Shown here: positions 11,374 through 52,223 of the stretch, one piece after another
Numbering within the stretch: the stretch's first letter is position 1
Layout of the letters: every line of letters starts with the position of its first letter
Assembly (NCBI GenBank): GCA_964518565.1
Contig: CAZFGX010000001.1
Span: forward strand, 588,470 to 652,469
Direction: 5' to 3'
From: an uncultured Gammaproteobacteria bacterium
GTDB lineage: Bacteria > Patescibacteriota > Microgenomatia > CAZETR01 > Amesbacteraceae
Length of the DNA: 64,000 nt
Program-made: the position numbers and the translations under genes
The notes under the pieces: model-generated
Databases searched by the model: none
Told to the model about the DNA's origin: nothing
What the model saw: only the letters and a program-made list of their open reading frames with translations

Positions 11374-12084
11374 ATTTTCAAACAAACAAGCCACAGTCAC
11401 AGGTCCCACCCCACCTGGCACAGGAGTAAAAAAACTACTTTTACTATTCACCTCTGATACAAAGTCTCCCTGAGGATACCCCACATCAATACAAATTGCC
11501 CCATCCGAAACCATATCCGGCAAAATTAATCCCTCTTGCCCAGTAGCTGAAATAATCACATCAGCATCGCGTATCTCCTTTACCGAAAAATCTTCTTTAT
11601 CCATTCCGACAACAGTATGTCGTTTCCCTAATTCATTTGCCACTTTCGAACCAACCGTTCCCCAAACTCCGACCACAACAATATTTAGATCATCTGCAGA
11701 TCTTTGGGTTATCAAAACAGCTTGGTCTAAAATTTTTAAAATCGCTCTCACTGTTGCTGGCAAATAAACACTTTCCTCTTGCATCCCATCTACATCTTGA
11801 TCAGGCAAAAACTTTTCTACTATCTGATTTGAGCCCAAAAATGGCAACTGCACCATTTTTCCATCTGCAACAGCTGACAAAAAATCTAGTTCTTGCTCAT
11901 AAACATCCATTTGCACTCCTAATCGTTGGGCGACACGTTTTTTCATTGCCACATATTTGACCCCAGATTCGTTATGCGAATCCAACAAAACCGCCAATAC
12001 TTTTTTTCGAGACATTTCAGGCAATTTCAACAATTGTCCAAGTATTTCCTCAGAAAATTGCTTCCCATCAAAAATCACACCCAT
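11341..12084 (-). CDS. folD: methylenetetrahydrofolate dehydrogenase/cyclohydrolase
   Basis: 247 aa, FolD-like throughout; convergent 33-nt overlap with the upstream ATPase gene. Confidence 0.82.
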   Translation of the reverse strand: MGVIFDGKQFSEEILGQLLKLPEMSRKKVLAVLLDSHNESGVKYVAMKKRVAQRLGVQMDVYEQELDFLSAVADGKMVQLPFLGSNQIVEKFLPDQDVDGMQEESVYLPATVRAILKILDQAVLITQRSADDLNIVVVGVWGTVGSKVANELGKRHTVVGMDKEDFSVKEIRDADVIISATGQEGLILPDMVSDGAICIDVGYPQGDFVSEVNSKSSFFTPVPGGVGPVTVACLFENLLLGHVLPGK

Positions 12085-19106: not shown

Positions 19107-19801
19107 GGTGAAAATTGTGAAATCGGATGGTCTTTTGCCAAAACATGAGCCGTACGCATAACAGCCCTCAGATCTTCTACTCCCAAACGACCAAGGGTCT
19201 CCAAGGTGAATCGTACAGCATTCTCAGATATCGACAATTTTTCATTCGCCAATGCCTTTTCATTCGCCAATGCCCTCTGAAAATACAATACATCCTCATT
19301 AGCTCTAGCCAAGTCTTCAAGCCACAACACTCTCTGAAAATACAATACCACCTCAGCCGAATGCTGAGCCAATTCAGTCAACAGATGTCCAAAGAGTTTT
19401 GATTGATTCATCAAATCAAAATTTGGCCCATCAACCCTCTCTCGACGATCGAGCGGTAATGATCGAAAATGTGTGTACCAGTTTCGGACGTCAGCAGTCG
19501 AAATACTCCAAATGACTTCCATCGCAGTGCGATGTTTCTCAGGCTCTGGCGCCACGACGGGCGCCACCTTTGCCTGTGCTGGGATATTGCGCTGCACCAT
19601 CCCAATAGTTTGCACTACCGGTTTTGGTGCGTCGTTTCCTGAAGACCACACGATCCAACCCCCAGCTGCTGCTAACGGAAATCCAAAAAGTACCAGTACC
19701 GTCGGCATCAATCCTTCTTCAGAACTACCATCGCCAAAAATAAAAGCCAAAACAAGCAACAACAATCCAAGGCCAGCTGCCACATAACCGAATCTTTTCA
19801 T
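19103..19801 (-). CDS. membrane protein with internal repeat (operon gene 1)
   Basis: start taken at MKRFGY, preceded by a GGAGG SD; 2 TM; repeated VLYFQRVLWLEDLARANEDVLYFQRALANEKALANEK. Confidence 0.45.
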   Translation of the reverse strand: MKRFGYVAAGLGLLLLVLAFIFGDGSSEEGLMPTVLVLFGFPLAAAGGWIVWSSGNDAPKPVVQTIGMVQRNIPAQAKVAPVVAPEPEKHRTAMEVIWSISTADVRNWYTHFRSLPLDRRERVDGPNFDLMNQSKLFGHLLTELAQHSAEVVLYFQRVLWLEDLARANEDVLYFQRALANEKALANEKLSISENAVRFTLETLGRLGVEDLRAVMRTAHVLAKDHPISQFSP

Positions 19802-26945: not shown

Positions 26946-28661
26946 TTATTCACCGGTTTCCTGAGGAATATTTGCGTAGGGATAGGTATCACTTACATCA
27001 AAAAACTTCGCCAATATTTGCCGCGCAATCGGCGCAGCTGCATTAGATCCTTCCCCTCCTCCTTCGACCAATACCGTGACAGAAATTCGTGGTGCATCGG
27101 CAGGTGCATAGATTGTCAGCCAAGCATGTGTGCGCATTTTTCCAGATTCACCCACATATTCGGCCGTTCCAGTTTTACAAGCCAACACCGGCAAGATATC
27201 TGATGAAGATGTATACAAAGCCGTCGATTTTCCTGCTCTAGCTGCCTCATTCCAATCAAATAAAGGAAACGCCGTGCCACCTGGACTACACGCGCCCAAC
27301 ATTCCCTCATGAACGATTTTCAAAGCAGAAGCAGAAATTTGTACCGTTTCGCATTCACCACTGTTGGCTTGAATTACCATATGAAGTGGACATTTCCGAC
27401 CATCCGCAGCCAACACATTGGTCATCCGATTGACTTGAATAGGCGTCAGTAATGTATCCGCTTGGCCAATTGCCATATGATATGTATCTCCCAAAAACCA
27501 ACCCGAACCACTTAAGCGTTTACGAGTCTCAGGTGTCCCCACAATTCCTTCTACTTCTCCGCCTATTTCCACTCCTGTTTTTTCACCCATGCCCAATCGT
27601 TTCGCCCAACTAGCAATTTCTTGCGACCCCGTCATCTCTCCTACTTTGTAAAAAAATGTGTCCGTAGATCGAGTCAAAGATCGCGAAAAATTCACCACCC
27701 CTTCCGTCCCTCCATGTTTAGTAAACAACCAGTTTGTATATCGAAATGTTCCCACTGTCACCACTCCAGTATCCGTATAAACAAAATCCGATTTTACCTT
27801 GCCAGAATCAATCGCCGCTATTGTGGTATTCATTTTAAAAGTCGACCCCGGCGGATAAATACCTCCAATCGCGCGATTAAACATGGGCAAATTACCATCC
27901 GTTAATGCCGCAGCAATATTTTTTGGATCAAATCCTGGTGCACTTACCAGCGCCAACACTTCCCCGGTTTGAGGATTACTGACAATGGCCGCACCTTTTC
28001 TGACTCGACTCTTCATGAGCCCTTCATAAGCTACTCGAGACAACTCGGCATCAAGCGTCGTATACAAACCATGTCCAGCAGTTGGCTGACGCAAACCCAA
28101 ACTTCGCACCACTGATCCAGCATTATCGACCTCGATCAGTTTTCCCCCATCGACTCCCCGCAAACTCGACTCAAACGCCTGCTCAAGTCCCATCCGCCCA
28201 ATCATATCCTTCGCCTCATATTTCTTCCCAGCATTTTTCAACAAACCCACCTCATCCTCCATCACTTCACTCAAATATCCCAACACATGACTAGTAGCTT
28301 CACCATATGGATATATCCGTTTCCAGGCTTCACGTTCCCGACCCATTTCATCCGTATATGTATATTTTTCACCTCGAGCCAACTCTTTATCATTTCTGTC
28401 ATAAATTATTCCTCGTTGTGCTGGGACTTTTAATGTTTTAATTCGATTTTCATCTGCCAACACTGTGTACATATCACCTTTAAATACCTGCAACACAGCC
28501 AGCCGAACAAACAACAGCCCAAACCCCAACAACATTACCAACCAAATCAACCACCCTCGCCGATAATCGCGCGTATCCTGTTCTTTCAATCGACTCTTTG
28601 TTCCCGAAAAATCCGACACCACAAAATCCGAAAAACTTACTCCCGGACGAAATCGCTTCAT
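26946..28661 (-). CDS. penicillin-binding protein 2 (transpeptidase)
   Basis: 571 aa; N-terminal TM, GSTFK active-site motif, KTG triad. Confidence 0.82.
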   Translation of the reverse strand: MKRFRPGVSFSDFVVSDFSGTKSRLKEQDTRDYRRGWLIWLVMLLGFGLLFVRLAVLQVFKGDMYTVLADENRIKTLKVPAQRGIIYDRNDKELARGEKYTYTDEMGREREAWKRIYPYGEATSHVLGYLSEVMEDEVGLLKNAGKKYEAKDMIGRMGLEQAFESSLRGVDGGKLIEVDNAGSVVRSLGLRQPTAGHGLYTTLDAELSRVAYEGLMKSRVRKGAAIVSNPQTGEVLALVSAPGFDPKNIAAALTDGNLPMFNRAIGGIYPPGSTFKMNTTIAAIDSGKVKSDFVYTDTGVVTVGTFRYTNWLFTKHGGTEGVVNFSRSLTRSTDTFFYKVGEMTGSQEIASWAKRLGMGEKTGVEIGGEVEGIVGTPETRKRLSGSGWFLGDTYHMAIGQADTLLTPIQVNRMTNVLAADGRKCPLHMVIQANSGECETVQISASALKIVHEGMLGACSPGGTAFPLFDWNEAARAGKSTALYTSSSDILPVLACKTGTAEYVGESGKMRTHAWLTIYAPADAPRISVTVLVEGGGEGSNAAAPIARQILAKFFDVSDTYPYANIPQETGE

Positions 28662-37306: not shown

Positions 37307-37681
37307 TTATTTCTTCGTTGTGCTGGGTCTTTTTTTTGCCTGTCGTTGCTCCACTTTCTGTTTCCGACTCACTCGCAATTTTTCATGAATCTCTTGCACT
37401 TCATCTGGCACAAATGCTCCATCAGCAAGATACACCGGCACATCCCCCATTCGACTCATACCAGGAATTATTTTATGCGTCCCATCTGGCATCCGAATTC
37501 TGCGCACACGCCCTTTTACCACTTCTTTTTTCTCTCCCACATTCATGACATAGCCTTGACTCTCTACTCCGCCTTCGTCATACATATTTCCATCTCCACC
37601 CATTTCAGCATCATTTTCCGTATTCATTCCCAACTTTCGCTGGATGTCTGCAATACTTAGTCTTCGTTCAATACTCATCAC
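37307..37681 (-). CDS. hypothetical basic protein
   Basis: 124 aa, Lys/Arg-rich C-terminus, convergent with the cassette. Confidence 0.4.
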   Translation of the reverse strand: MMSIERRLSIADIQRKLGMNTENDAEMGGDGNMYDEGGVESQGYVMNVGEKKEVVKGRVRRIRMPDGTHKIIPGMSRMGDVPVYLADGAFVPDEVQEIHEKLRVSRKQKVEQRQAKKRPSTTKK

Positions 37682-39821: not shown

Positions 39822-40412
39822 ATGTTAGGTTTACTCTTTAGCGATCCCTACAGCTTTATCCTGACCCTAGGTAGTCTAATCCTGGCTATCGGCCTCCACG
39901 AAGCCGCCCATTGCTACATGGCCGACCGCCTAGGCGATCCCACCCCTAGATCTATGGGCCGCCTGACACTAAATCCCATTGCCCACCTCGATCCACTCGG
40001 TACTCTGTCCATTGTTCTAACTGGCATGTTTGGCTGGGGCAAATCTGCTCCGTTTGACCCTTACAACCTCCGTAACCCAAATCGAGATATTCGCCTCATC
40101 GCCTTAGCTGGACCAGCCACCAACCTCTTATTGGCCATCATAGGTGCAATCATATTTCACCTGATTCCCACACCTACACCAGTCGCCAATATCATAGTGA
40201 TGTTCATGGCACTAAATATAAATTTGGCTCTATTCAATTTATTACCCATCCCTCCGCTCGATGGCTCAAAAATCTTTTTCCCAAAAACCGCCACCCAGCC
40301 TCGAAATTATCAAACTACATATATACTCCTCGTTATTCTCATCATGACTGGGATCGTCGGCCAGATTATCAGCCCAATTTCCCAAACCATACTTCATCTC
40401 TTACTCGGCTAA
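39822..40412 (+). CDS. M50-family (site-2 protease-like) zinc metalloprotease
   Basis: 196 aa; HEAAH in the first TM, polytopic. Confidence 0.68.
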   Translation: MLGLLFSDPYSFILTLGSLILAIGLHEAAHCYMADRLGDPTPRSMGRLTLNPIAHLDPLGTLSIVLTGMFGWGKSAPFDPYNLRNPNRDIRLIALAGPATNLLLAIIGAIIFHLIPTPTPVANIIVMFMALNINLALFNLLPIPPLDGSKIFFPKTATQPRNYQTTYILLVILIMTGIVGQIISPISQTILHLLLG

Positions 40413-40413
40413 T

Positions 40414-40596
40414 ATGACTACCAAAGAAGCATATGTTCATGTAAAACCCCAACAGAGTGAAGACATGCTTACGCAAAAGCAAATCTTGCAAAACATGCTA
40501 GAGATCATCAACAACCCTCAATCTCCCAAATGGGCCGTCGATGCCGCCTTCGAACGCATCAGATCCATTAGATCTAAACCTGGCTCTCGTGCTTGA
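40414..40596 (+). CDS. small hypothetical protein
   Basis: 60 aa ORF immediately after the M50 gene. Confidence 0.3.
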   Translation: MTTKEAYVHVKPQQSEDMLTQKQILQNMLEIINNPQSPKWAVDAAFERIRSIRSKPGSRA

Positions 40597-40600
40597 CGAA

Positions 40601-40610
40601 TTGGTATAAT
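40601..40610 (+). promoter_or_regulatory. extended -10 promoter (TGGTATAAT)
   Basis: seen directly; precedes a ~190-nt non-coding stretch ending in a terminator. Confidence 0.45.
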
Positions 40611-40614
40611 AGAG

Positions 40615-40802
40615 TTGTCCTACCGTAAAGGATAGTGGAGAAATTTTCCTTAACTATTTTTTCCTATAGGGCTTGCACAATTTTGTTGTAGTCCTCGTAC
40701 TACAACAAACAATTTCGTCTTAGTTTCTTTGACGAAAAAGCTCGCCCACCTTTTCGAAGGCTTAGGGAAAAACCTTCACGCCTCAAACGGCGGGACACCA
40801 AA
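40615..40802 (+). ncRNA. candidate structured small RNA (unclassified)
   Basis: no ORF; internal perfect 8-bp hairpin GTTGTAGT-CCTCGT-ACTACAAC; bounded by the promoter and an intrinsic terminator. Confidence 0.3.
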
Positions 40803-40829
40803 AATCCCCACGTTAGTGGGGATTTTTTG
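40803..40829 (+). terminator. intrinsic terminator
   Basis: ATCCCCAC-GTTA-GTGGGGAT followed by TTTTTTG. Confidence 0.7.
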
Positions 40830-40844
40830 TTAAAATAAGTCAGT

Positions 40845-40919
40845 GCCATCTTAGCTCAGCGGCAGAGCAGCTGTTTTGTAAACAGCAGGTCCTCGGTTCG
40901 AATCCGAGAGATGGCTCCA
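40845..40919 (+). tRNA. tRNA-Thr (anticodon UGU), CCA encoded
   Basis: cloverleaf read by hand: acceptor GCCATCT/AGATGGC, anticodon loop TTTGTAA, T-loop TTCGAAT. Confidence 0.88.
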
Positions 40920-40926
40920 AAAAAAA

Positions 40927-42972
40927 CTAGTAGCTCAAAACAATTCTCGGCCGATTTGTCACCACCGCTTCTGAAGAAGAAATGTTCATACCATCAGCCC
41001 GAGGCGAATCTATAGCCAAAGTAAATACAGTACCAATATTCGACTTCACAAATGAAGTAATATCCAATTGTATCCATTGATTCGCCACTCCTCCACCAGA
41101 ATTTGTCGCCAAAATCGTACCCAAATCTGGCCTATTGGCAAATGTCAGTGTTTCTTCAGTCCAAGATGTGTTCGCGACTTGACGAACACGCTGTGGACTA
41201 ACTGAAGGCGCATCTTTACTCGCTGTAATCTTAAAACGTAATTTTGCCGAAGAAATATTCTTACCCAAATAGCCTCGAGTATCAAACTTCATATATGTAA
41301 TTTTTGTCGGATCTCCATCTATAAATAATTCTGTAACGTTTGCATGGGTGATATTTGGATACACTGCGGTGACATAAGAATCTTCTACTGGCACAACCTC
41401 AGCGCCTTGAGTTGACGGAACTGGAGTAGTAATAACCGTAGGTACCACCGTCGATGTTGGCATCACAGAAGGTTGAATAGTAGCCGTAACAACCGGGAGT
41501 GTACAATTTGATCCATTATTTACTGGAACACAATTGAGATTGTTTGCAAATACGAGACTATCCAATTTCAGCCCATTTTCTTTTCCAACCACTCGAATAC
41601 TGTGAGTTCCAGCACTCAAGGTTTGCAAAATTCGCGAGCCTGTCTGGCCATTCATATAATCCACCCACACCCATGAATTTGTTGCCATAGTTGCAAGATC
41701 CCCCACCAAAATCGGACAACCCGAATCTATTTGTAAATAATAGGCATTGGATGTAGAAGATCCTGCCATCATTCGGCTCCAAACCACATACTGGCCAGTA
41801 GAAGCAATAGATACACTCCCTGTTGCGACTCCAAAGGTGGTGGGAATGGCAGCACAAGTAGATAGAGTTGGCGTAGGCGTATTCGGCTGAGGAGTATTGG
41901 TGGGTTGACCAGGAATAGGAGTAGCTGTAGGTATAGGTGTAGGAGTATTTGTAGGCCGAATAGTATTAGTTGGTACAATAGTTGGAGTATTGGTCGCTAC
42001 AGGTACAGGAGTAATGTTTGGATCATTCGTAATAGTAAACGAGTCAACAAGTCCTCCTCCGCCCACATTTATATAGCTATAAGCTATTTGTGAAGGTGAA
42101 ACAATAAATTTTCCCCATCCATAATTTGAACTCACATTTGTGGATTTTTCAAAATATGGATATTCAGAATCTGTAGTATTCAAACCACGAAACCCTTGTC
42201 CACCAGTACCCAGTACATCAATTACCAACCCTTGACCTTGTATAAAATTTCCTCCTGCGGCACTCACGCAACTAGCCACATATGTCCCTGCAGTCGCACA
42301 AGATAACTGCTTTGATCTTTCATACCCATGCTCATGACCTTGTAGCACTAGATCTACTTTTTTATTGAACAACAATGTCATAAATGGTGTCCCTACTTCA
42401 TTCCCCTTTTCCATTACCGAAATATAATTCTTATGCATTCCAACCACGACCCACTTAATACCACGAGCCCTCGCATCATCAATAGCATTTGAAGTAAATG
42501 TGTAACCAGTACCACCAACAGCATAGCTAATTGCACCAGATCCATACGATCCGCCTACTCCCGGTCTTACCATTACAAATCTAGCAATTGGGTTATTAAC
42601 CGGGTAATCAAAATAATAATTATGTCCATACGTACCAACAATATTCACACCAGCCCTCGGACAATTAGCTATATATGTCTCAATATTTCCCGAGCTACTT
42701 TCACCAGAATCATGATTTCCTGTCACTAGTAATAAATTTGTGAATGTCCCCCATTTGCTACACCAGTTTTGTTCAGCAGTGGTATAAGCCAAATCACCCA
42801 AGGCCAAAAATAAATTTGGATTTTGCTGTCTGATACTATTTGTCACATTTCCAAAATTTGATCCATTTGCAAAGTCCCCCGCAGCCCCAAAACTAAAACT
42901 AGTCGATTGAGCAAATACCTTGTCACCAAAAAACAAGCTCATAAAAAACAGAAGTGTAAAGTATTTTTTCAT
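40927..42972 (-). CDS. secreted calcineurin-like metallophosphoesterase with Thr/Pro linker and C-terminal domain
   Basis: 681 aa; signal peptide; GDLAYT, GNHD and GHEH phosphoesterase motifs; PTNTPTPIPTATPIPGQPTNTPQPNTPTPT linker. Confidence 0.7.
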   Translation of the reverse strand: MKKYFTLLFFMSLFFGDKVFAQSTSFSFGAAGDFANGSNFGNVTNSIRQQNPNLFLALGDLAYTTAEQNWCSKWGTFTNLLLVTGNHDSGESSSGNIETYIANCPRAGVNIVGTYGHNYYFDYPVNNPIARFVMVRPGVGGSYGSGAISYAVGGTGYTFTSNAIDDARARGIKWVVVGMHKNYISVMEKGNEVGTPFMTLLFNKKVDLVLQGHEHGYERSKQLSCATAGTYVASCVSAAGGNFIQGQGLVIDVLGTGGQGFRGLNTTDSEYPYFEKSTNVSSNYGWGKFIVSPSQIAYSYINVGGGGLVDSFTITNDPNITPVPVATNTPTIVPTNTIRPTNTPTPIPTATPIPGQPTNTPQPNTPTPTLSTCAAIPTTFGVATGSVSIASTGQYVVWSRMMAGSSTSNAYYLQIDSGCPILVGDLATMATNSWVWVDYMNGQTGSRILQTLSAGTHSIRVVGKENGLKLDSLVFANNLNCVPVNNGSNCTLPVVTATIQPSVMPTSTVVPTVITTPVPSTQGAEVVPVEDSYVTAVYPNITHANVTELFIDGDPTKITYMKFDTRGYLGKNISSAKLRFKITASKDAPSVSPQRVRQVANTSWTEETLTFANRPDLGTILATNSGGGVANQWIQLDITSFVKSNIGTVFTLAIDSPRADGMNISSSEAVVTNRPRIVLSY

Positions 42973-42974
42973 AT

Positions 42975-43475
42975 TTATTTAGTTTGCTGTAAATCAATCA
43001 CAACTTCAACTGTATCTTCCTCTACTTCTATCCCTACATACCCGCTCAACATGCCCTTAGAGATATGAATAATTTGTTCAGATGTAGCAGTCTTGTCATT
43101 TGGAGCTTCGACTCTCCACCCCAGCTTTGTAAGCTCCTCTTCATACCATGCTTCCAATTGCATTACAGTTCTTTTTGTTGTAACCCACTTAGCATAATAA
43201 TCTCCACTCGTATATGCCGGCATTATTCGTTTGCGTGATTCGCGCAGCTCCAAAGTTTCTGCCACTGGAACCATTGGAAACCCTTCGACTATTTGTGTTT
43301 CACTCTCCACTGTGTTTTGTTCATCATTCACAGGCACCTCTTGTGTCATAAATTTACTTTTTGATGAATTATCAGATACTGATTGTTTTACCCCCATATT
43401 CAACTTCCAGACCAAAACAGACACCAAAATTACTGCAAAAGCTGTCCCAACTATAGTCAAAATTTTGTGTTTCAT
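42975..43475 (-). CDS. membrane-anchored hypothetical protein
   Basis: 166 aa, N-terminal TM. Confidence 0.45.
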   Translation of the reverse strand: MKHKILTIVGTAFAVILVSVLVWKLNMGVKQSVSDNSSKSKFMTQEVPVNDEQNTVESETQIVEGFPMVPVAETLELRESRKRIMPAYTSGDYYAKWVTTKRTVMQLEAWYEEELTKLGWRVEAPNDKTATSEQIIHISKGMLSGYVGIEVEEDTVEVVIDLQQTK

Positions 43476-44743
43476 TGTTCTAAAGGTGGCAAGGTATTTC
43501 GTAATATATCAATATACAAATTAGAGTTTTGTACGCCGTATGCAGCAGGCGCCGAAGTATCAAGTTCATCTTTACCAGTTGCTGAATTGAATTTGACTTT
43601 TTGTGCCGGCTCTACACCAGATCCTTCACCCCATTCATTCCACGTTTCTACGAGCCTCCATGTCGCAGACGAAGCATTCATTTGATTCACAGCTGAGGTA
43701 AATGCCGCACTATCACGTGCCAACCGCTCCGCAGAACCAGGATTATCCAACCAAAATCCTGGAGACACAGAAAAAGAATACTTTCCTTGATTATCAGTTC
43801 TGACCGCAGGAGCATATTGATGCCAAGAATCAGGCTGATCTGCATCAGATATATATCCAGAATGAACTTTTAAGACTGTATAAAAAGCATTTCCAACCTG
43901 AGCGTTCGCCTGTGCCCATCGCGTACTAGTCGCAGCTGATTCCTGCCCCCCATACACGAAAATCACTGGTTTTCCATTCACTCGCAGATAATACGGACTG
44001 GAAGCATAATCTGATTTTATGTGATTCAAATCCGCCACCAACGTAGATACGGCTGGATCAGCAAATCCTTCATCTTCATAGTACACTGCCCAACGTAAAT
44101 TTGGATACGGATTGTCTGATCTAGCCATAAAATCTTTCAAAATATGTGACAAGGCCACATCTTCTTTAGTTCCTGGCCCCCACCAAGACGCAATTGCTGC
44201 TTCTAGTTTTGCTTCTTTCATTTTTGCCACCTGCCATTTGAAATTTGTGTAGTCATTGGCCGAATACAGCTCCCCCGCTGGATCAAATGCCGCAGTATTC
44301 GAATCCGGTAAATAATGCGAAAACCAGGTGTTTGGAGGCGAACCTGCATCCACATGTGGATCACTCCAATAACTATATGCCCCATCAGTTTTTGGATTTT
44401 TGTACCACATATAATAAAAGGTTGCATAATATGGAGCCATCGGTTGGAAAGAAGTATTTGTAGGTGATAGCGTCGCGGAAGGCACAGTTGTATTAGTAGC
44501 GATTGAACCAAACTGGATATATTTTCCGTCAGACGCTGAAGCATCAGCTACGATTTGAGCTCCTGCCACATTTGCCGTTTCTGGCTCAAATTGATTCTGT
44601 GCGGCCGCTGCGTAAACACTCCTGTTTGTCAAAATCGTCACAATCGCAGATTGATTAAAGCTAATAAATAAAAAAGCACCCAAAAATGCTACATACAGAG
44701 CAAGCCTACCTGTTCCTGCATAAAAAATTTTATCCCTGTTCAC
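43472..44743 (-). CDS. secreted glycoside-hydrolase-like protein (GH99-like WNEWGEG motif)
   Basis: 423 aa; N-terminal TM; ETWNEWGEGS resembles the conserved WNEW(H)EG of GH99-type TIM-barrel hydrolases. Confidence 0.5.
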   Translation of the reverse strand: MNRDKIFYAGTGRLALYVAFLGAFLFISFNQSAIVTILTNRSVYAAAAQNQFEPETANVAGAQIVADASASDGKYIQFGSIATNTTVPSATLSPTNTSFQPMAPYYATFYYMWYKNPKTDGAYSYWSDPHVDAGSPPNTWFSHYLPDSNTAAFDPAGELYSANDYTNFKWQVAKMKEAKLEAAIASWWGPGTKEDVALSHILKDFMARSDNPYPNLRWAVYYEDEGFADPAVSTLVADLNHIKSDYASSPYYLRVNGKPVIFVYGGQESAATSTRWAQANAQVGNAFYTVLKVHSGYISDADQPDSWHQYAPAVRTDNQGKYSFSVSPGFWLDNPGSAERLARDSAAFTSAVNQMNASSATWRLVETWNEWGEGSGVEPAQKVKFNSATGKDELDTSAPAAYGVQNSNLYIDILRNTLPPLEQ

Positions 44744-44794
44744 CTATCTATCCTGCTGCCAAAAATTAGCGCTGTCAATATGCTACGATAAATT

Positions 44795-46390
44795 ATGGCC
44801 AGATTACCGGTAGTTGGGAGTGACGATGGAAATTGGGGTTCGATATTAAACACATTTTTAGGAGTCGCTCACAACTCAGACGGCACACTCACTAGCAATG
44901 GAACAGTATTCGTAGTCGCTTCTGACGGACCTACTACGTTTCAAAATGTCGCTACATACAACTGTGACGGCACTGCCGACGACGTCCAAATCCAGGCAGC
45001 CATAGACAGTCTACCTTCTACTGGAGGCAGCATCATGCTTAGTCGTGGCACATTCAACATAGCCGCTCGAATAGACCTAGGCACAAAAACCAATATCGAT
45101 ATTTGCGGCGAAGGCTGGAGTACGGTTATCAAACTCACTGCCAATACTGATACTCAACTTATTGGTTCATCAGGAGCATGCGCTCGAATCACTATTAGAA
45201 ATATTGCCTTTGACGGTAATCGTTCAAACCAATCTACCGGCACCACTCGTCAAGCTATTCGTTTCACTTCCAGTAGCGCCCAAGACATCAAACTACAAAA
45301 TCTATATATCCATGACACATACAATCACGGCATCAGTATTTCTTGTCTCAAAGTTCATATCACCAACTGCACAATCGCTTCTTGTGGACTAGGTGTTTCA
45401 CCTGGCGACGGAGGCATAATTCTCAATTCCCCTTCAGACAGTTGCATAGTGTCAGGTTGTGAAATAAGAAGTTGTGGTGGAGACGGTATCTCAAATCAGG
45501 GCACTCGTCACAATATCGTCAACAACAAATCTCACGACAACCAGGACACTGGCATAAATCTGGCTGGTGGTGGTCATATTGTCATCGGCAACGAAGTCTA
45601 CCTGAATTACAACTCTGGCATAAACACCGGTTCAGGAGACAATTTGGTCATTTGTTACAACATCTGCTATGCGAATGGTCGCAACACTGGCGCCAATCCT
45701 TCAAACGCCGGCATCCGTGTCCGGGACAGCACTAGCGTTGTCGACACTTCTACAGATGTGATTGTCATGGGCAATCGCTGTTATGACGACACATCTACCT
45801 ACGCACTAGGCGGTTCCAGCGGCCAACTCTATGGCATCGAGATCATGCATGGTGCAGTCGGTGGCGCCAGCTCACCTGACTATCTAGTCATCACTGGCAA
45901 CGATGTCCGCAGCAATCTAACTACAAATATTTATCGCAACAATGTCGGCTACAATGTCTTGATCTCCAACAATTTAGGCGACGACTCCAGCCCCAGACTG
46001 GTCACTGAAACATTTTCCATGATTACCCCTGGTGCCACAGCTATCACCTGGACATCCATGCCCTCCTCTCAAACCGAGTTCAATGGTGCTACGAGAAATA
46101 GAATCAAAGTAGATCTGACTGGTGCAAACCAAATTCGACTCGTGGCCAAAATCATTGTTGTCGGCGCTACTGGCTCCAAACTACGTCTCCAATACTCCAC
46201 CAACGAAAGTTCCTGGACAGATGTCAGCACTTCAGGCGACGTGGCCTGCGATGCTGTAGCTACCACCGCCGGCTCCTGGGTCTCTATTCCCGACGCTGCC
46301 AAAACCGATATCTACCTACGCATCTCAGGACTATCTGGCGACGGCGCCACCTCTCCCCAATTTGGTCTAGCTACAGTTCAAGTCAGATAA
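44795..46390 (+). CDS. right-handed parallel beta-helix (pectate-lyase/tailspike-like) protein
   Basis: 531 aa; repeated (S/N)xCxIxxCGxxGIS-type PbH1 coils; no signal peptide. Confidence 0.62.
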   Translation: MARLPVVGSDDGNWGSILNTFLGVAHNSDGTLTSNGTVFVVASDGPTTFQNVATYNCDGTADDVQIQAAIDSLPSTGGSIMLSRGTFNIAARIDLGTKTNIDICGEGWSTVIKLTANTDTQLIGSSGACARITIRNIAFDGNRSNQSTGTTRQAIRFTSSSAQDIKLQNLYIHDTYNHGISISCLKVHITNCTIASCGLGVSPGDGGIILNSPSDSCIVSGCEIRSCGGDGISNQGTRHNIVNNKSHDNQDTGINLAGGGHIVIGNEVYLNYNSGINTGSGDNLVICYNICYANGRNTGANPSNAGIRVRDSTSVVDTSTDVIVMGNRCYDDTSTYALGGSSGQLYGIEIMHGAVGGASSPDYLVITGNDVRSNLTTNIYRNNVGYNVLISNNLGDDSSPRLVTETFSMITPGATAITWTSMPSSQTEFNGATRNRIKVDLTGANQIRLVAKIIVVGATGSKLRLQYSTNESSWTDVSTSGDVACDAVATTAGSWVSIPDAAKTDIYLRISGLSGDGATSPQFGLATVQVR

Positions 46391-46393
46391 TTG

Positions 46394-46399
46394 TATAAT
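46394..46399 (+). promoter_or_regulatory. -10 box TATAAT upstream of tRNA-Tyr
   Basis: TTGTATAAT lies 11 nt before the tRNA 5' end. Confidence 0.4.
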
Positions 46400-46409
46400 C
46401 ACTAGTATT

Positions 46410-46491
46410 GCTGGGATACCGAAGCGGTCAAACGGGCCTGACTGTAAATCAGGTGGCTACGCCTTCGAAGGTTCGAGTCCTTCTCCCAGCA
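46410..46491 (+). tRNA. tRNA-Tyr (anticodon GUA), long variable arm, no encoded CCA
   Basis: hand fold: acceptor GCTGGGA/TCCCAGC, anticodon loop CTGTAAA, 13-nt variable arm, T-loop TTCGAGT. Confidence 0.85.
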
Positions 46492-46588
46492 CAAATCCTT
46501 CAGTCTCAAATCTATATGCTATAATCACTATAGGATATTTAAACACTGCGTTTAAATTCAGTCTAGTACTTTAATAGTTGGAGGTATT

Positions 46589-47077
46589 ATGTCAGCTACA
46601 AATCGTGTAGGTATTCCATTGCAAGAATGGGTAAATAACAATAATCCTTCAGAGGATCTGTATGCAAAAGGAGGCTTCTGGCGTCAAATCTATTTTGTCA
46701 GAGACGAACTCCCTTCTGCCCTTTCCAAAAATTACGATGAATACGTTGCAATCAAAGAAGAAACTCTTGTGATCTCTCACCACTGGTCAAAATCTGTACG
46801 CTTACCAGTGTATCGCCTAACGCTAAAAGATGGCACTACTCTGGTGATGCGCTGCAATTTTTCCGATTGGAAAGTTTCAGTAAATTCTCAAAGAGAAATT
46901 CGCATCAACTTTCTGAATCTATTCGACTCCACACCAGTAGTCCATCATGTCTACTGTGAAGGATTTCCCAAAGAATTAGTATTTGGCTCCTACTTACATA
47001 GCGGGAGGCAGTTCACATTCGAGATAACCACAAATTACAAACTGTTCACCTTTTGCTGGTTACTCACCCACAGTTAA
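46589..47077 (+). CDS. hypothetical protein
   Basis: 162 aa; GGAGG SD. Confidence 0.45.
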   Translation: MSATNRVGIPLQEWVNNNNPSEDLYAKGGFWRQIYFVRDELPSALSKNYDEYVAIKEETLVISHHWSKSVRLPVYRLTLKDGTTLVMRCNFSDWKVSVNSQREIRINFLNLFDSTPVVHHVYCEGFPKELVFGSYLHSGRQFTFEITTNYKLFTFCWLLTHS

Positions 47078-47081
47078 ACCT

Positions 47082-47525
47082 ATGAAAACAAAGAAACTTA
47101 TTCCGTTCGCTCTAGATCGCCTCAAACCAGTTCCGAAATTCTATGTCCCAAAGCCAGGTACAAAATTTGCTGATCACAAATTACGCCCAGACATAATTCT
47201 TGCCGAAACAGCCGCTCATCCACAAACAGGTTGGGTATATGTCGGTATTGTGTCAGAACACACACCGTATGGCCAAGGAATCTGCATCGCGATCAAATTT
47301 GAAGATCTTCGCGAAGCAAGCGATGGAGATATACTAAAAGCCCTACTTATGCCCCACCCTCACGACGATTTTTATGCCGGCAAATTCATGCCACCGAATG
47401 TGGGAAATGCAATCGAAGCAAAGAAATTTGGTCAGATAATAACCGATTGGAGATTGACCATTTCAAAGCAAATCAATCAAATTGTAGTCTCACACGGCTG
47501 GCAAGCAAAAAAAGAGAAGTCCTAG
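47082..47525 (+). CDS. hypothetical protein
   Basis: 147 aa. Confidence 0.45.
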   Translation: MKTKKLIPFALDRLKPVPKFYVPKPGTKFADHKLRPDIILAETAAHPQTGWVYVGIVSEHTPYGQGICIAIKFEDLREASDGDILKALLMPHPHDDFYAGKFMPPNVGNAIEAKKFGQIITDWRLTISKQINQIVVSHGWQAKKEKS

Positions 47526-47546
47526 GAATTCAAGGAGTTGCAGTAA

Positions 47547-47833
47547 TGCTAGCAAAAAAAATTCGCAGCTTCATTATCTTCGTATTGCGAGCCACAAGCA
47601 AATTGGAGCCTATACTAATCAGAGCTGAGTTTACAGCAATTGGTTTTTCCGGCCACGTATCAGAGGTCGACAAATCTATCGCAAGACAAAACAATTTCAA
47701 AGACCTAAACCGTTTCGAAAAATGGATTCTTAATCCCACAATCGAAGCAGAGAAAGAAAAACGTAAAGAAAATTTTCGACAAGCAGTGATCGAGGTCACA
47801 GGAGAAGATCCAGAAATCGATTGGACAGAATAA
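47547..47833 (+). CDS. hypothetical protein
   Basis: 95 aa from MLAKK; the tracked ORF start overlaps the previous gene. Confidence 0.4.
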
Positions 47834-47845
47834 ACCTCTAAATCC

Positions 47846-47883
47846 CAGCACCCTGCGGCTCACGCCAACGGGTGCTTTTTTTA
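47846..47883 (+). terminator. intrinsic terminator
   Basis: CAGCACCC...GGGTGCT stem followed by TTTTTTT. Confidence 0.65.
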
Positions 47884-47925
47884 TGCCTTGTAGTATTTCA
47901 CTTCAGCTATTGTTATGATTGGCAT

Positions 47926-48285
47926 ATGTCATTCAGATTTCGTTCAGCTGTCATTTACGATCGAGTCCATTTGTACGCCAAAGAAATGTACAACATGACC
48001 GGTCGCTTTCCCGAATATGAACGCGACGGTCTGATCAAAGACATTCGGTCCACCTGTCTCAATCTAGTCAAAGAAACCGCTATCACCTTAAACAAACCCA
48101 AAGGCCAAGAAGAAACCAAAGATTCCTACAAACAATGCCTCAATAGTATTAGTGAACTGGTGGCCTTATTTGATTTTGCCTTCCGAATGGAATACATCTC
48201 CGAAATTCTTCATACTCGGGCGATTCAATTTTCTGAAGATGCAATGAAATACCTCTACGAAGCCAAAGACGTCCACGGCAAATAA
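47926..48285 (+). CDS. four-helix-bundle protein (23S rRNA IVS-type family)
   Basis: 120 aa; FRFR...IY...MTGRFP.YERDGL..IRS pattern matches the family. Confidence 0.6.
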   Translation: MSFRFRSAVIYDRVHLYAKEMYNMTGRFPEYERDGLIKDIRSTCLNLVKETAITLNKPKGQEETKDSYKQCLNSISELVALFDFAFRMEYISEILHTRAIQFSEDAMKYLYEAKDVHGK

Positions 48286-48312
48286 GCAAATTTTTGGTAA
48301 AATCTATTTCGT

Positions 48313-48384
48313 GCCTGGGTAGTTCAGTGGTAGAACGCATTCTTGGTAAGAATGAGGTCGAGAGTCCGATTCTCTCCCCAGGCT
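48313..48384 (+). tRNA. tRNA-Thr (anticodon GGU), no encoded CCA
   Basis: hand fold: acceptor GCCTGGG/CCCAGGC, anticodon loop TTGGTAA. Confidence 0.85.
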
Positions 48385-48414
48385 CACTAGCACTATTACC
48401 AAAATAGCGTCGAG

Positions 48415-48487
48415 AGATCGATCACGAACGAAGTGAGGGATAGAGAAAAAATCGAAGATTTTTTTGATATTCTCTCCCCAGGCTCAG
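48415..48487 (+). repeat. degenerate duplicate of the tRNA-Thr(GGU) 3' half (att-like direct repeat)
   Basis: GTCGAGAGATCGAT...ATTCTCTCCCCAGGCTCA repeats GTCGAGAGTCCGATTCTCTCCCCAGGCTCA of the tRNA, with a ~45-nt insertion. Confidence 0.6.
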
Positions 48488-48491
48488 ATCT

Positions 48492-48695
48492 TTAGCAATC
48501 CTTCACCGTATTACCTTGAGCGTCACTGTGATATCGGGGACAATGTGTAGCCGTAGCAGCTGGTTTTTGTTCAGTAATTTTTAATCCTTGAGACGGTCCT
48601 TCTTCAAATTTAATATCACACCCAGATAGCCCCAATACCCCCATTACCCATACACCAGTAATCACAGCTTGGCGAATTGCTCGCTCCTTATCCAT
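48492..48695 (-). CDS. small lipoprotein
   Basis: LSGC lipobox after an N-terminal hydrophobic segment; 67-71 aa. Confidence 0.4.
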   Translation of the reverse strand: MDKERAIRQAVITGVWVMGVLGLSGCDIKFEEGPSQGLKITEQKPAATATHCPRYHSDAQGNTVKDC

Positions 48696-48726
48696 GATAA
48701 GACCCAATTATAGGGCAAAAGTCTGT

Positions 48727-49956
48727 CTAACGCGAATCGTACATCGTGCGCAAATATTCTTTTATGGTTGTAGCCCCATTTTTTACTAGCCGAATCCCCT
48801 CTGTATTTAGATCTGCAAACCCAGACTCCACCAATTTTTTCCGAAACTCTTCTTCCGTCCCACCTGCCAAAACCAAATCTCTCACCTTGTCATCCATCTT
48901 CAACATTTCAAAGACACCCACCCGACCCTTATACCCTGTCTGGACACACCAATCACAACCCTTGCCAGTAAATAGTTGAAAATTGGTATCCCCTATTTCT
49001 TTTTGCATCAATTTTTTCCCTTCCTCTGTCGGCGCCACTGCCGTCTTACAATGGTCGCACACTCGCCGCATCAAATGCTGAGATAAAATTCCTCGAACTG
49101 CATAATTGATCATGTACCGATCAACCCCCAAATCCATCAGTCGGTACAATGCACCTGCGCTATTTCGACTATGAATTGTCGAGATCACCAAATGTCCAGT
49201 CAACGAAGCCTGAATGGCCACCCGAGCGGTTTCTGCATCTCGAATTTCACCGACAAACACCACATCTGGATTGAGTCGCAAAATCATGCGCAAACCCGAC
49301 ACAAAATCCAAACCTATTTCCTGTCCCACCTCTATCTGATTTACCCCCGGCATGATGTATTCCACCGGATCTTCAATAGACATAATATTCATCTCCCCAT
49401 TATTCAAATATCGCAAACAGGTATGCACAGTGGTAGTTTTTCCGGATCCAGTAGGGCCAGCAACCAAAAATAGACCATATCTTCCTGCAATACTTTCCTG
49501 CATCATTTTGCCCATTTCAGGCAACATACCTAGTTGGGCAAATTCAGAAAATTCCGGGATATCCAATACCCGAAATACAATCATTTGGCCAAAATTCGTC
49601 GTTACGATCGCTACACGACACACGTACGGATGACCTTCAATATCAAATCGAATTTTAGATTCCTGTGGCTTACGACTTTCCGTCACATCCATATTTCCCA
49701 ATACTTTCACCCGCGTCAATACCTGGGTATATGTTCCAGGTGGCATTTCGCCAAACGTCGTCAACACCCCATCGACACGAAACCGTACCAAAGTTGTCTT
49801 TTCCTGAGGCTCAAACAAAATATCCGAAGCTTTTAGCCTGACTGCCTGGGCAAACACCAAATCCACGATCTCCACTGGCGAAGACATGCTAGACAATTGC
49901 AATAGATCAGACATAGGCAGTACTACTATTCTCCAAGCTAGACTACCCAATGTCAA
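48727..49956 (-). CDS. GspE/PilB-family type II/IV secretion ATPase
   Basis: 409 aa; Walker A GPTGSGKTTT; Asp/His boxes; C-terminal tetracysteine CDHC...CDWC; start may be the internal MSDLL. Confidence 0.8.
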   Translation of the reverse strand: MTLGSLAWRIVVLPMSDLLQLSSMSSPVEIVDLVFAQAVRLKASDILFEPQEKTTLVRFRVDGVLTTFGEMPPGTYTQVLTRVKVLGNMDVTESRKPQESKIRFDIEGHPYVCRVAIVTTNFGQMIVFRVLDIPEFSEFAQLGMLPEMGKMMQESIAGRYGLFLVAGPTGSGKTTTVHTCLRYLNNGEMNIMSIEDPVEYIMPGVNQIEVGQEIGLDFVSGLRMILRLNPDVVFVGEIRDAETARVAIQASLTGHLVISTIHSRNSAGALYRLMDLGVDRYMINYAVRGILSQHLMRRVCDHCKTAVAPTEEGKKLMQKEIGDTNFQLFTGKGCDWCVQTGYKGRVGVFEMLKMDDKVRDLVLAGGTEEEFRKKLVESGFADLNTEGIRLVKNGATTIKEYLRTMYDSR

Positions 49957-49988
49957 TCCGAGAAAAAAATGCTATAATTAGTGGCAAT

Positions 49989-50162
49989 ATGGCCAAAAAA
50001 GGTGCCCGACAAATTTATGCCTTGATCTGCAGTGTCTGCAAAAGACAAAACTATGCTATGGTCAAAAACAAAATCAATACACCTGAAAAACTGACTTTTG
50101 ACAAATATTGTCCCAAGTGTCGCAAACACACCGAACACAAAGAATCCAACAAATTAAAATAA
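49989..50162 (+). CDS. rpmG: 50S ribosomal protein L33 (zinc-ribbon form)
   Basis: 57 aa from MAKKG; CSVC...CPKC; NKINTPEKL matches the L33 core. Confidence 0.72.
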   Translation: MAKKGARQIYALICSVCKRQNYAMVKNKINTPEKLTFDKYCPKCRKHTEHKESNKLK

Positions 50163-50190
50163 CCAATTAGTGGTATGATCTGAAGTAGAC

Positions 50191-50733
50191 ATGGAGTCTG
50201 AGTCTAAGACATCACTCCTACCCCTCTTTATCGGCGTACTCATAATCGCCACTTCCGCCACCGGTTACATTCTTCTCCTCAAATCTCCACCTGATCCAGC
50301 CAAAAATCGTGTTCTATCAAAAAATATTGAGGTCTCCCCCACACCTGGCCCTACAACCACACCCACGCCCATCACCAAGTCACTTCCAGCTATCGATTAT
50401 CCCAATACAAACTTTATTTCAGCCACTGCGACCGCCAGCCAATATTCTATAACCGACCCCAAATCCTGCGAACAATTTGATCCCACCAATGCCACCAGCC
50501 CCATCCAAACCAGCACCTTCCACGATCAAACTGTCTTTTACCAAACCTCAGGCACAGTAGAAGGGACAGTAGTCACCGAAACCCGCCAATACCACCTACC
50601 AAAAGACAACATCTGTGAAGAAAAAACTCTTACCCTCAAAACCACAAATATACGCTCCATCGACCCAGCCAAAAAAATCAAGGCCGTCGATACTGATCTA
50701 ATCTGGCAACGACTCGAATCCCTCCTCCCGTAA
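50191..50733 (+). CDS. secreted hypothetical protein
   Basis: 180 aa, N-terminal TM, Thr/Pro stretch. Confidence 0.45.
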   Translation: MESESKTSLLPLFIGVLIIATSATGYILLLKSPPDPAKNRVLSKNIEVSPTPGPTTTPTPITKSLPAIDYPNTNFISATATASQYSITDPKSCEQFDPTNATSPIQTSTFHDQTVFYQTSGTVEGTVVTETRQYHLPKDNICEEKTLTLKTTNIRSIDPAKKIKAVDTDLIWQRLESLLP

Positions 50734-50805
50734 ATTTTGGTAAAATGACTTCATCTAGGGGTGTCGTTCAACGGCAGCCCCGCAGCTGCGGGGTCCAAAA
50801 CCAAA

Positions 50806-51060
50806 ATGTATTACGTCTACATTTTAAAAAGCGAACATGACGGAAATATATATACAGGTTACTCGTCTGACTTAAAACGTAGAATCCAAGAACACCAATC
50901 TGGAAAAGTAGACTCAACAAAAAACCGCTTACCTATAAAATTAATATATTACGAAGCATATCTGAGCGAAACAGATGCTAGGAATAGAGAACAGTATTTA
51001 AAAAATGGTGGAAATGCCAAAAACACGTTAAAATCACAAATACAAAACTCTTTAAAATAA
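50806..51060 (+). CDS. GIY-YIG nuclease family protein (YhbQ/UPF0213-like)
   Basis: 84 aa from MYYVYILKS; GNIYTGYS..L.RR..EH motif. Confidence 0.68.
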   Translation: MYYVYILKSEHDGNIYTGYSSDLKRRIQEHQSGKVDSTKNRLPIKLIYYEAYLSETDARNREQYLKNGGNAKNTLKSQIQNSLK

Positions 51061-51072
51061 ACTGTTCATCGC

Positions 51073-51144
51073 AGGGCCGTGATGTCAATGGTAGCATGGG
51101 GGTCTCCAAAACCTCTCGTCCAAGTTCGAATCTTGGCGGCCCTG
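51073..51144 (+). tRNA. tRNA-Trp (anticodon CCA)
   Basis: hand fold: acceptor AGGGCCG/CGGCCCT, anticodon loop CTCCAAA, T-loop TTCGAAT, discriminator G. Confidence 0.85.
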
Positions 51145-51221
51145 CATTGAACAATTACAAAAATTCGCAGTCTCCAATCCCGCCGCTGCGGGACGATTCC
51201 TTCCACCCCTGCCAAATCACA

Positions 51222-52223
51222 CTATTTTGCAAAACCTCCAAAATAGCTTGTCAGATCGTCAAAATTTTCCGCAAAATACTCCAAGCTATCTACATGAGGT
51301 TTTATAAATATATCTGGACGACAATTTTGTTTTAAATAATGCTCTGATTCTATCCACAGGCTCTGAATCTTTTTATAAAAATAAACCTGCCAACCCATTT
51401 CTATCTCAGATTGAGACAAGGGATATTCAGACTGATACGTCGTCATAAACGCCTCGATATTGCCCATATCTTTCTCAGTCGGAACTCCTTCGACACACAT
51501 ATAATCCATAGATCTAATCACTTCATAAATCCTATGTCTCACTCCAGTCTTTTCAAAATCAAACACATGACTCACATTATTATTACCATCAAAAAATACA
51601 TTTCCATCATGAAAATCTCCATGAATTTGGTGAGAGGGATTTAAATCAAAATTTGTATGATCTGGAATAGACTTTTCTACAAATCGTAGCTTGAGTTCCA
51701 GCCCGCGCAGTGCAATCCGATCAAAGTCATCCGATTCAGATTTAGATAAAATACTCTCTCTAATATTCTCTGCTTTATGTATAAATTCTGCCGTATCCCA
51801 GGTTTCTATTTCTCCATCAGCACCAAAAGGCAATTCACTCCCCAATCTATGGATCTTCGCCAGCATTTTTGCCATCGATTTAAAATGAACTACCTCCAAA
51901 TCTCTTCTACTTATCTGTATCGCATCAACAAACGGAAAAAGTGCATACACTCCACCTTCAAAAGAAAAAAAAGTACCGTCTTTTCCTATCATGGGCAAAA
52001 TTACCGGCACACCACCTTGAGAAAAAAATTTCTTTACCCGATGGACTTGGGCTACTTGTTCAGAGTCTTCAAATCGATATCTCTTCAAAAAATATTTCTG
52101 CTGCCGATTAGCCAAAATATAATTTTTACTCAGTACCCCTTTTTGCACCTCAGAAACAACCCTCAGATCATCACGTAAATCGAAATTACTTTTTATATAC
52201 GCCAATAAATCATCCACCGCCAA
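51222..52223 (-). CDS. phosphotransferase-family kinase (APH/choline-kinase fold)
   Basis: 333 aa; HGDFHDGNVFFD catalytic motif and downstream D..FE. Confidence 0.62.
   Translation of the reverse strand: MAVDDLLAYIKSNFDLRDDLRVVSEVQKGVLSKNYILANRQQKYFLKRYRFEDSEQVAQVHRVKKFFSQGGVPVILPMIGKDGTFFSFEGGVYALFPFVDAIQISRRDLEVVHFKSMAKMLAKIHRLGSELPFGADGEIETWDTAEFIHKAENIRESILSKSESDDFDRIALRGLELKLRFVEKSIPDHTNFDLNPSHQIHGDFHDGNVFFDGNNNVSHVFDFEKTGVRHRIYEVIRSMDYMCVEGVPTEKDMGNIEAFMTTYQSEYPLSQSEIEMGWQVYFYKKIQSLWIESEHYLKQNCRPDIFIKPHVDSLEYFAENFDDLTSYFGGFAK

Follow-up and report, generated by a model that had tools for sequence, protein, structure and literature searches.

Genomic islands that target tRNA genes are typically bounded by attachment repeats of several tens of nucleotides (nt), and bacteria of the Candidate Phyla Radiation (CPR) have reduced genomes. 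Within the CPR, the PF05635 domain has been reported inside insertions in 16S and 23S rRNA, where it is functionally uncharacterised (PMC11270868). Here we examine a 64,000-nt stretch of DNA (the window; positions 588,470 to 652,469 of the forward strand of contig CAZFGX010000001.1, assembly GCA_964518565.1) assigned to the Amesbacteraceae, in which three small open reading frames (ORF1, ORF2 and ORF3) lie between a tRNA-Tyr gene and a four-helix-bundle (4HB) gene that in turn precedes a tRNA-Thr gene (Table 1). Based on the gene content of the same interval in relatives and on a repeat of the tRNA-Tyr 3' end at the far boundary of the three genes, we propose, with a probability of roughly 0.6, that ORF1-3 descend from an integrative element or prophage which had entered an attachment site at the 3' end of tRNA-Tyr and has since decayed to this remnant.

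The comparison set consisted of loci around PilB orthologs from five distinct Amesbacteria (L006-L008, L009/L010, L011, L012/L013 and L014). A scan of contigs with PilB returned solely distant Paceibacteria loci without tRNAs, and the relatives were reached via PilB homologs; their PilB proteins are 65-68% identical to the one encoded in the window. The window protein has a 100% identical counterpart on a 1.0-Mb NCBI contig, and its next-best matches (67-68%) belong to named Candidatus Amesbacteria (CPR, Microgenomates). The order tRNA-Tyr, 4HB, tRNA-Thr(GGU), pilB is common to all five, and in three of them (L008, L011 and L014) a tRNA-Thr(UGU) gene lies 25-27 nt upstream of tRNA-Tyr. The ancestral layout would thus have been tRNA-Thr(UGU), tRNA-Tyr, the 4HB gene and tRNA-Thr(GGU), followed by a convergent pilB. 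What differs among these genomes is the slot between tRNA-Tyr and the 4HB gene, which in the window spans 1,433 bp and holds ORF1-3. It is essentially empty in L008 (41 bp) and L014 (54 bp), contains no gene in the about 280 bp of L011, and is filled by other genes elsewhere, namely one for a 292-aa DUF4349 protein in L009 and one for a PsbP/DcrB-like membrane protein in L012/L013. ORF1, ORF2 and ORF3 gave no tblastn match in any of the five relatives' loci. A preliminary description of this DNA had called the three genes accessory cargo, had proposed looking for empty and occupied versions of the interval in related genomes, and had taken conservation at this locus across distant relatives as the mark of core genes. 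The interval indeed occurs in both versions, and the accessory character holds for ORF1-3, which are found at the locus in none of the five relatives; conservation of the core kind is seen for the 4HB gene alone. Together, these comparisons indicate that ORF1-3 probably represent a lineage-specific insertion into a variable slot, and most likely the remnant of one.

The boundary of the cassette provides a second line of evidence. A 9-nt sequence from the 3' end of tRNA-Tyr recurs as an exact direct repeat just behind ORF3 (Table 1), and Markov resampling of the spacer gave P ~0.024 for finding one at any place in it and P ~0.001 for the 60 nt at the cassette boundary. We envisage that an integrative element recombined with the tRNA-Tyr 3' end, leaving TCCCAGCAC at both ends, and that deletion would afterwards have stripped it of the integrase and of most other genes. 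The remaining ORF1-3 would constitute an autonomous, moron-like transcription unit with a promoter-like -10 element, ribosome-binding sites and a terminator. In this scheme the right-hand TCCCAGCAC would correspond to the original tRNA terminus, so that the hairpin and T-run would formerly have stood directly after tRNA-Tyr, and what now terminates the cassette may have served tRNA-Tyr ancestrally, before the insertion displaced it. The empty site is predicted to read tRNA-Tyr joined directly to CCTGCGG...GGGTGCTTTTTTT, with a single copy of TCCCAGCAC. We also considered a transposon with a 9-bp target duplication and rejected it, as there is no transposase in the cassette and no terminal inverted repeats are apparent by eye.

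These genomes often carry repeated copies of tRNA 3' ends. The 3' end of the window's tRNA-Thr(GGU) is repeated over 18 nt at 84 nt downstream of the tRNA end, and equivalent copies follow tRNA-Tyr in L009 (17 nt, at 29 nt) and L011 (14 nt, at 58 nt), tRNA-Thr(GGU) in L011 (13 nt, at 62 nt), and tRNA-Leu (15 nt, at 151 nt) and tRNA-Ser (18 nt, at 360 nt) in L031; a control that used tRNA 5' ends gave no hits. Such repeats are probably the expected footprints of site-specific recombination followed by loss of the inserted element, and the pair behind the window's tRNA-Thr(GGU) looks like an attachment-site scar left by an element of which almost everything has been deleted. The 82-nt insert at that scar contains a further copy of GTCGAGAG, a sequence of the T-arm region, and is able to pair with the second 18-nt copy. 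A recurrence of the tRNA-Thr(UGU) 3'-end 9-mer at 46171, within a beta-helix gene, was judged a probable chance match and set aside. Because tRNA 3'-end repeats are so common here, we regard the locus as a recombination hotspot, and the earlier suggestion that tRNA-flanked islets of this kind are integration hotspots gains substance from them and from the boundary repeat at tRNA-Tyr. The repeats also bear on whether the cassette might still move, as a miniature element (a satellite or mobilisable cassette) that depends in trans on an integrase gene at another place and has TCCCAGCAC as its core site. Direct repeats do flank the cassette at a tRNA 3' end, and short repeat-flanked inserts occur at other tRNAs too; however, no second copy or related cassette was found in any collection searched, the repeat is short and the three genes are independently distributed, which together make present mobility extremely improbable.

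The proposal that an integrated element decayed at tRNA-Tyr has to be held against several observations that weigh against it. The gene calls of the cassette and the surrounding 16 kb include no integrase, recombinase or other gene for mobility, and the boundary repeat, at 9 nt, is short. By one count the 9-mer has two further copies in the window, on the other strand, and a listing of TGTGCTGGG(A), which is the tRNA-Tyr 3' end in reverse complement, gives three, at 19575-19584, 28417-28426 and 37319-37327; these extra copies are above expectation for a 9-10-mer, and no tRNA was called at any of them. The repeat pair in L009 does not enclose the gene that occupies its slot. The GC content of the cassette, 0.41 against 0.43, is not deviant. 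ORF1 has a codon score of 0.045, compared with 0.284 +/- 0.088 across 31 long ORFs in the window (2.7 standard deviations below the mean), but short native genes such as rpmG score low as well. Every contig that carries ORF1 has one and the same layout, with no presence/absence polymorphism seen, homologs of the three genes never co-occur, which leaves their joint arrival without support, and promoter use and transcription of the cassette are predictions. Finally, the relatives are distant, with the result that gain in this lineage and loss in the others are not strictly separable.

This last point is the main attraction of a different history, in which ORF1-3 were ancestral in Amesbacteria and were deleted in streamlined, deletion-biased relatives, with the 9-nt repeat arising by coincidence. 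The degree of PilB divergence allows for it, the unremarkable base composition of the cassette agrees with it, and a repeat probability of ~0.02 anywhere in the spacer is not overwhelming. By contrast, differential loss has to account for the lack of any trace of ORF1-3 in five of five relatives, for the unrelated genes that fill the slot in L009 and L012, for ORF1 and ORF3 families that are patchy, linked to phages or recombinases and do not follow lineage, and for a repeat that falls exactly at the cassette boundary (P ~0.001). We consider it an unlikely explanation, and retain the decay of an integrated element as the favoured one.

The organisation of the cassette agrees with the preliminary description in its particulars. 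Gene calls together with ARAGORN and Rfam recover three co-oriented small ORFs between tRNA-Tyr and tRNA-Thr, the GGAGG Shine-Dalgarno sequence of the first gene is present, and the three genes are closed by an intrinsic terminator whose hairpin and run of seven T residues fold at -17 kcal/mol (z = -3.8; equalled by 0 of 200 shuffles); a simple terminator scanner missed this hairpin solely through its loop of more than 8 nt. A gene of the four-helix-bundle family does follow the terminator. For all four ORFs, the annotated frame has the best codon-usage score of the three frames, and the gene order is identical on two further metagenome contigs. The cassette may have its own promoter upstream of ORF1: an extended -10-like element stands there (Table 1) and resembles the one before tRNA-Tyr, with TATAATCACTA found at both 46384-46394 and 46520-46530; a sigma-70 scanner that requires a -35 match called no promoter at 46517-46525.

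Table 1. Positions in the window of the features discussed in the text.
Feature	Position	Strand	Remark
tRNA-Thr(TGT)	40845-40919		ARAGORN/Rfam
tRNA-Tyr(GTA)	46410-46492	+	ARAGORN; Rfam RF00005, 60.9 bits
Left 9-nt direct repeat, TCCCAGCAC	46484-46492	+	3' strand of the tRNA-Tyr acceptor stem, discriminator base and one further base
Cassette holding ORF1-3, 1.35 kb	46493-47842		First base is the one after the tRNA-Tyr end
Extended -10-like element, TGcTATAAT	46517-46525	+	64 nt upstream of ORF1 start; read from sequence
ORF1, 162 aa	46589-47077	+	GGAGG at 46580-46584
ORF2, 147 aa	47082-47525	+	4-nt gap after ORF1
ORF3, 95 aa	47546-47833	+	20-nt gap after ORF2; AAGGAG at 47532-47537
Right 9-nt direct repeat, TCCCAGCAC	47843-47851	+	10 nt after ORF3 stop; overlaps the 5' arm of the terminator
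Intrinsic terminator	47847-47882	+	Hairpin 47847-47876, AGCACCC ... GGGTGCT, then T7
-10-like element, TGtTATGAT	47911-47919	+	Ends 6 nt before the 4HB ATG; sequence match
ORF4, four-helix-bundle (4HB) gene, 119 aa	47926-48285	+	
Promoter-like element, TGgTAAAAT	48295-48303	+	Upstream of tRNA-Thr(GGT); sequence match
tRNA-Thr(GGT)	48313-48385	+	ARAGORN and Rfam
Candidate 3'-end scar of tRNA-Thr(GGT)	48369-48486	+	18-nt exact repeat ATTCTCTCCCCAGGCTCA at 48369-48386 and 48469-48486, with an 82-nt insert between
PilB-like ATPase gene	48727-49956	-	Convergent to the tRNA cluster
tRNA-Trp	51073-51145		ARAGORN/Rfam

To place the three proteins, we searched one representative per 50%-identity protein cluster with ORF1, ORF2 and ORF3 concatenated into a single query, using exhaustive HMMER. 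At E<=1e-3 the search returned 841 proteins, of which 431 also pass E<=1e-10; the same query gave one match in a word-index homology search, which is far less sensitive. Among the best 150 of the 841, 146 align to ORF1, which thereby proves to belong to a large, unnamed family of proteins mostly 150-230 aa long. The family has the motifs FVRD, H-T-S-K-S-x-x-L-P-V, R-x-N-F-x-D-W-K-V-S-V and Y-C-E-G-F-P, and its invariant or near-invariant residues are W14, Q33, F36, R38, D39, H65, S67, K68, S69, L72, P73, R88, N90, W94, S97, Y122, E124, G125 and F126. AlphaFold2 models ORF1 with high scores (predicted local distance difference test (pLDDT) 95.1, predicted template modelling score (pTM) 0.89), and the model has no Foldseek match in PDB or BFVD. 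At the sequence level ORF1 matches nothing in Pfam, PHROGs, NCBIfam, PADLOC or PDB, and none of ORF1-3 has a match among GenBank phages (INPHARED).

The genomic contexts of ORF1 homologs point towards phages. A pattern scan of IMG/VR, made with a narrower ORF1 alignment since the full-breadth alignment was too diverse, found homologs in eight viral contigs of 46-191 kb. Others lie on two phage-like contigs, L003 and L019, with a DNA ligase gene and a Pyr_excise gene also present on L019, and one in L021 has topoisomerase II subunits directly on one side and a helicase on the other. On two Paenibacillus megaplasmids (L046 5357-6468 and L047 5320-6504), the homolog begins at, or 28 nt past, the stop codon of tmk, the dTMP kinase gene, in a phage-like region that also contains macro-domain, YopX and SprT-like genes. 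The CPR loci L015 and L017 each carry the homolog as a lone gene, and the L017 copy lies 585 bp downstream of a tRNA-Ser gene. No neighbouring gene is conserved among the loci that we retrieved. Our best guess is that ORF1 derives from the replication or nucleotide-metabolism repertoire of a phage and acts as an enzyme or binds nucleotides, an assignment drawn entirely from gene neighbourhood and conserved polar residues. Its family, which comprises more than 400 clusters at 50% identity, may be a widespread one of phage replication or nucleotide-metabolism proteins, with translational coupling to tmk in phage-like megaplasmids and with single genes taken up by CPR bacteria. One member, P0237 (416 aa), has its ORF1-family domain at the C terminus behind N-terminal RHS/YD repeats (Pfam E = 1.8e-11), an architecture reminiscent of polymorphic toxins.

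ORF2 and ORF3 are far more restricted, and neither has a match in Pfam, PHROGs, NCBIfam, PADLOC or PDB sequences. The only ORF2 match among the best 150 of the 841 proteins is ORF2 itself, where weak homologs (E ~1e-18 to 1e-3) would rank below those 150, and neither tblastn against the relatives nor the other searches found a homolog. ORF3 has three homologs among the same 150 (P0203, P0267 and P0269) and belongs to a small family of ~50% identity, known from 16 metagenome loci scattered in the CPR and from none of the viral contigs searched. Modelled from a four-sequence alignment, ORF3 is a helical hairpin (pLDDT 88.5) with no PDB match by sequence or model. One homolog is found ~480 bp from a large serine recombinase gene (L032), and another sits between infB and rbfA in the reverse orientation. 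The family is often decaying in CPR genomes: the copy at L030 386-688 has an in-frame stop codon, and that at L033 110-1399 consists of the C-terminal part only, reading on from a transposase-like ORF. Because homologs of ORF1, ORF2 and ORF3 never occur together in any locus that we retrieved, we interpret the islet as a mosaic of independently mobile genes that do not form a system, and a conserved three-gene system is ruled out on the same grounds.

These distributions also bear on whether the three genes could be a functional accessory system of another kind, for anti-phage defence, superinfection exclusion or as a toxin-immunity pair, with ORF1 as the effector and ORF2 as its partner. The genes are tightly packed and co-oriented, with only 4 nt between ORF1 and ORF2, they come with a promoter-like element and a terminator of their own, and P0237 carries the N-terminal RHS/YD repeats seen in polymorphic toxins. 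Nonetheless, that fusion is a single case, the phage homologs of ORF1 sit in replication or nucleotide-metabolism modules, and ORF1 homologs are often solitary with no conserved downstream partner, which is hard to reconcile with a toxin in need of an immunity protein; ORF2, the would-be partner, has no homolog that we could find. PADLOC returned no match to ORF1-3 at E<=0.1, and its one match to the 4HB gene (E = 0.023) looks like noise. We give such a system little credence. The earlier notion of defence cargo finds no support, as nothing in these data points to defence, and a remnant of an integrated element remains our preferred account of the cassette.

The same preliminary description had grouped the 4HB gene with the accessory islet, a view that the comparison with relatives overturns, since the gene lies immediately 5' of tRNA-Thr(GGU) in every relative examined and is core to the locus. 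Because the order tRNA-Tyr, 4HB, tRNA-Thr(GGU), pilB is kept in all five, we take the gene to be a resident of the tRNA cluster and no cargo. The window copy matches PF05635 (23S_rRNA_IVP) at E = 2.9e-6 with 27.9 bits, below the 33.8-bit cut-off, and has weak scores against TIGR02436 (18.8 against a cut-off of 24) and the Avd profiles (21 bits against an 80-bit cut-off). Its six syntenic ortholog sequences (L008, L009, L011, L012/L013 and L014; 115-126 aa) all match PF05635 at E<=0.01, the best at 4.2e-10, and are 27-34% identical to ORF4, compared with 65-68% for PilB. These figures argue that the 4HB protein is a PF05635-family member by orthology, with a window copy below the cut-off, and that its gene is probably a vertically inherited, fast-evolving, old resident that lies outside the insertion. 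A -10-like element precedes its start codon (Table 1), a similar hexamer is found 7 nt before the 4HB ATG in L008 (~11687-11700) and L014 (~7728-7745), and no Shine-Dalgarno sequence is present in any of the three, which suggests a leaderless mRNA. Rfam detects no rRNA within 40000-52000, which places the 4HB gene outside any rRNA intervening sequence. A role as the Avd protein of a diversity-generating retroelement was ruled out, given the weak Avd profile scores and the lack of a reverse transcriptase (RVT domain) among the called genes at the locus and in the relatives' syntenic loci.

Other parts of the tRNA cluster also show signs of rearrangement. The ~5.5 kb between tRNA-Thr(UGU) and tRNA-Tyr in the window (40920-46409) encode a metallophosphatase-CBM96 protein, a 166-aa protein, a GH99-like protein and a 531-aa beta-helix protein, and we interpret this segment as a second, larger insertion into the cluster because the same two tRNA genes are only 25-27 nt apart in L008, L011 and L014; in L012, a 259-aa zinc-finger protein is encoded at this position. 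Between tRNA-Thr(GGU) and pilB, the window has an ORF of 67-71 aa with a lipobox-like LSGC motif on the minus strand (48492-48707), for which tblastn found no homolog in the relatives' loci; in L008, L009 and L012, tRNA-Thr(GGU) lies 5-12 nt from the pilB stop codon. In L014, ARAGORN puts tRNA-Thr(GGU) (7298-7370) on the opposite strand relative to the other relatives, which implies that a segment between pilB and the 4HB gene was inverted locally. L011 contains a perfect 123-nt tandem repeat in 2.2 copies (11415-11680) that extends from within the 5' end of tRNA-Thr(GGU) into the upstream region and is further evidence for recombination at this tRNA cluster. A gene of the GIY-YIG nuclease family (Pfam) is located at 50761-51060 of the window, directly upstream of tRNA-Trp and after rpmG and a 180-aa unknown ORF, and a GIY-YIG-like ORF is found just downstream of a tRNA-Ser gene in L031.

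Collectively, these observations describe an ancestral tRNA cluster that was split by insertions and bears repeat scars at several of its tRNAs, and they make the locus a clean, small case of reduced CPR genomes gaining and eroding foreign genes at tRNA 3' ends. As such, the islet is an ordinary, already known kind of feature that leaves current concepts unchanged. That it holds new biology, in the double sense that ORF1 founds a structurally novel phage family and that the 4HB gene extends the association of 23S_rRNA_IVP proteins with stable-RNA genes beyond rRNA insertions to tRNA operons, is a tentative idea that we consider rather unlikely. Were it true, a 4HB protein encoded in a tRNA cluster would suggest a role in stable-RNA processing or a homing into stable-RNA loci. 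In either case, two uncharacterised families, that of ORF1 and that of the 4HB gene resident between tRNA genes, can be flagged for structural and biochemical study.

Set beside tRNA-associated genomic islands, the cassette shares the site at a tRNA 3' end, the repeat of the tRNA terminus at the far boundary, the absence from relatives, a cargo with mobile-element origins and the scars at neighbouring tRNAs; it differs in having no integrase, a size of only 1.35 kb with three genes, an unshifted GC content and a repeat of 9 nt, below the typical length. Because the integrase is absent and the repeat is short, we file the locus as the remnant of a tRNA-associated islet and not as an intact island. 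With phage morons the cassette has in common a promoter-like -10 element, ribosome-binding sites, a strong terminator, small genes and, in ORF1, a phage-borne family. Unlike morons, it does not lie in a recognisable prophage, as its flanks consist of tRNAs, the 4HB gene, pilB and genes related to glycans, none of them a structural or replication gene of a phage, and its terminator may belong to the tRNA. The 4HB gene, for its part, resembles the genes of 23S rRNA intervening-sequence proteins in sitting inside a stable-RNA gene cluster and differs from them in its position between tRNA genes and not inside an rRNA; in contrast to classic members of the PF05635 family, it is vertically conserved at one Amesbacteria locus, where it has a putative promoter of its own.

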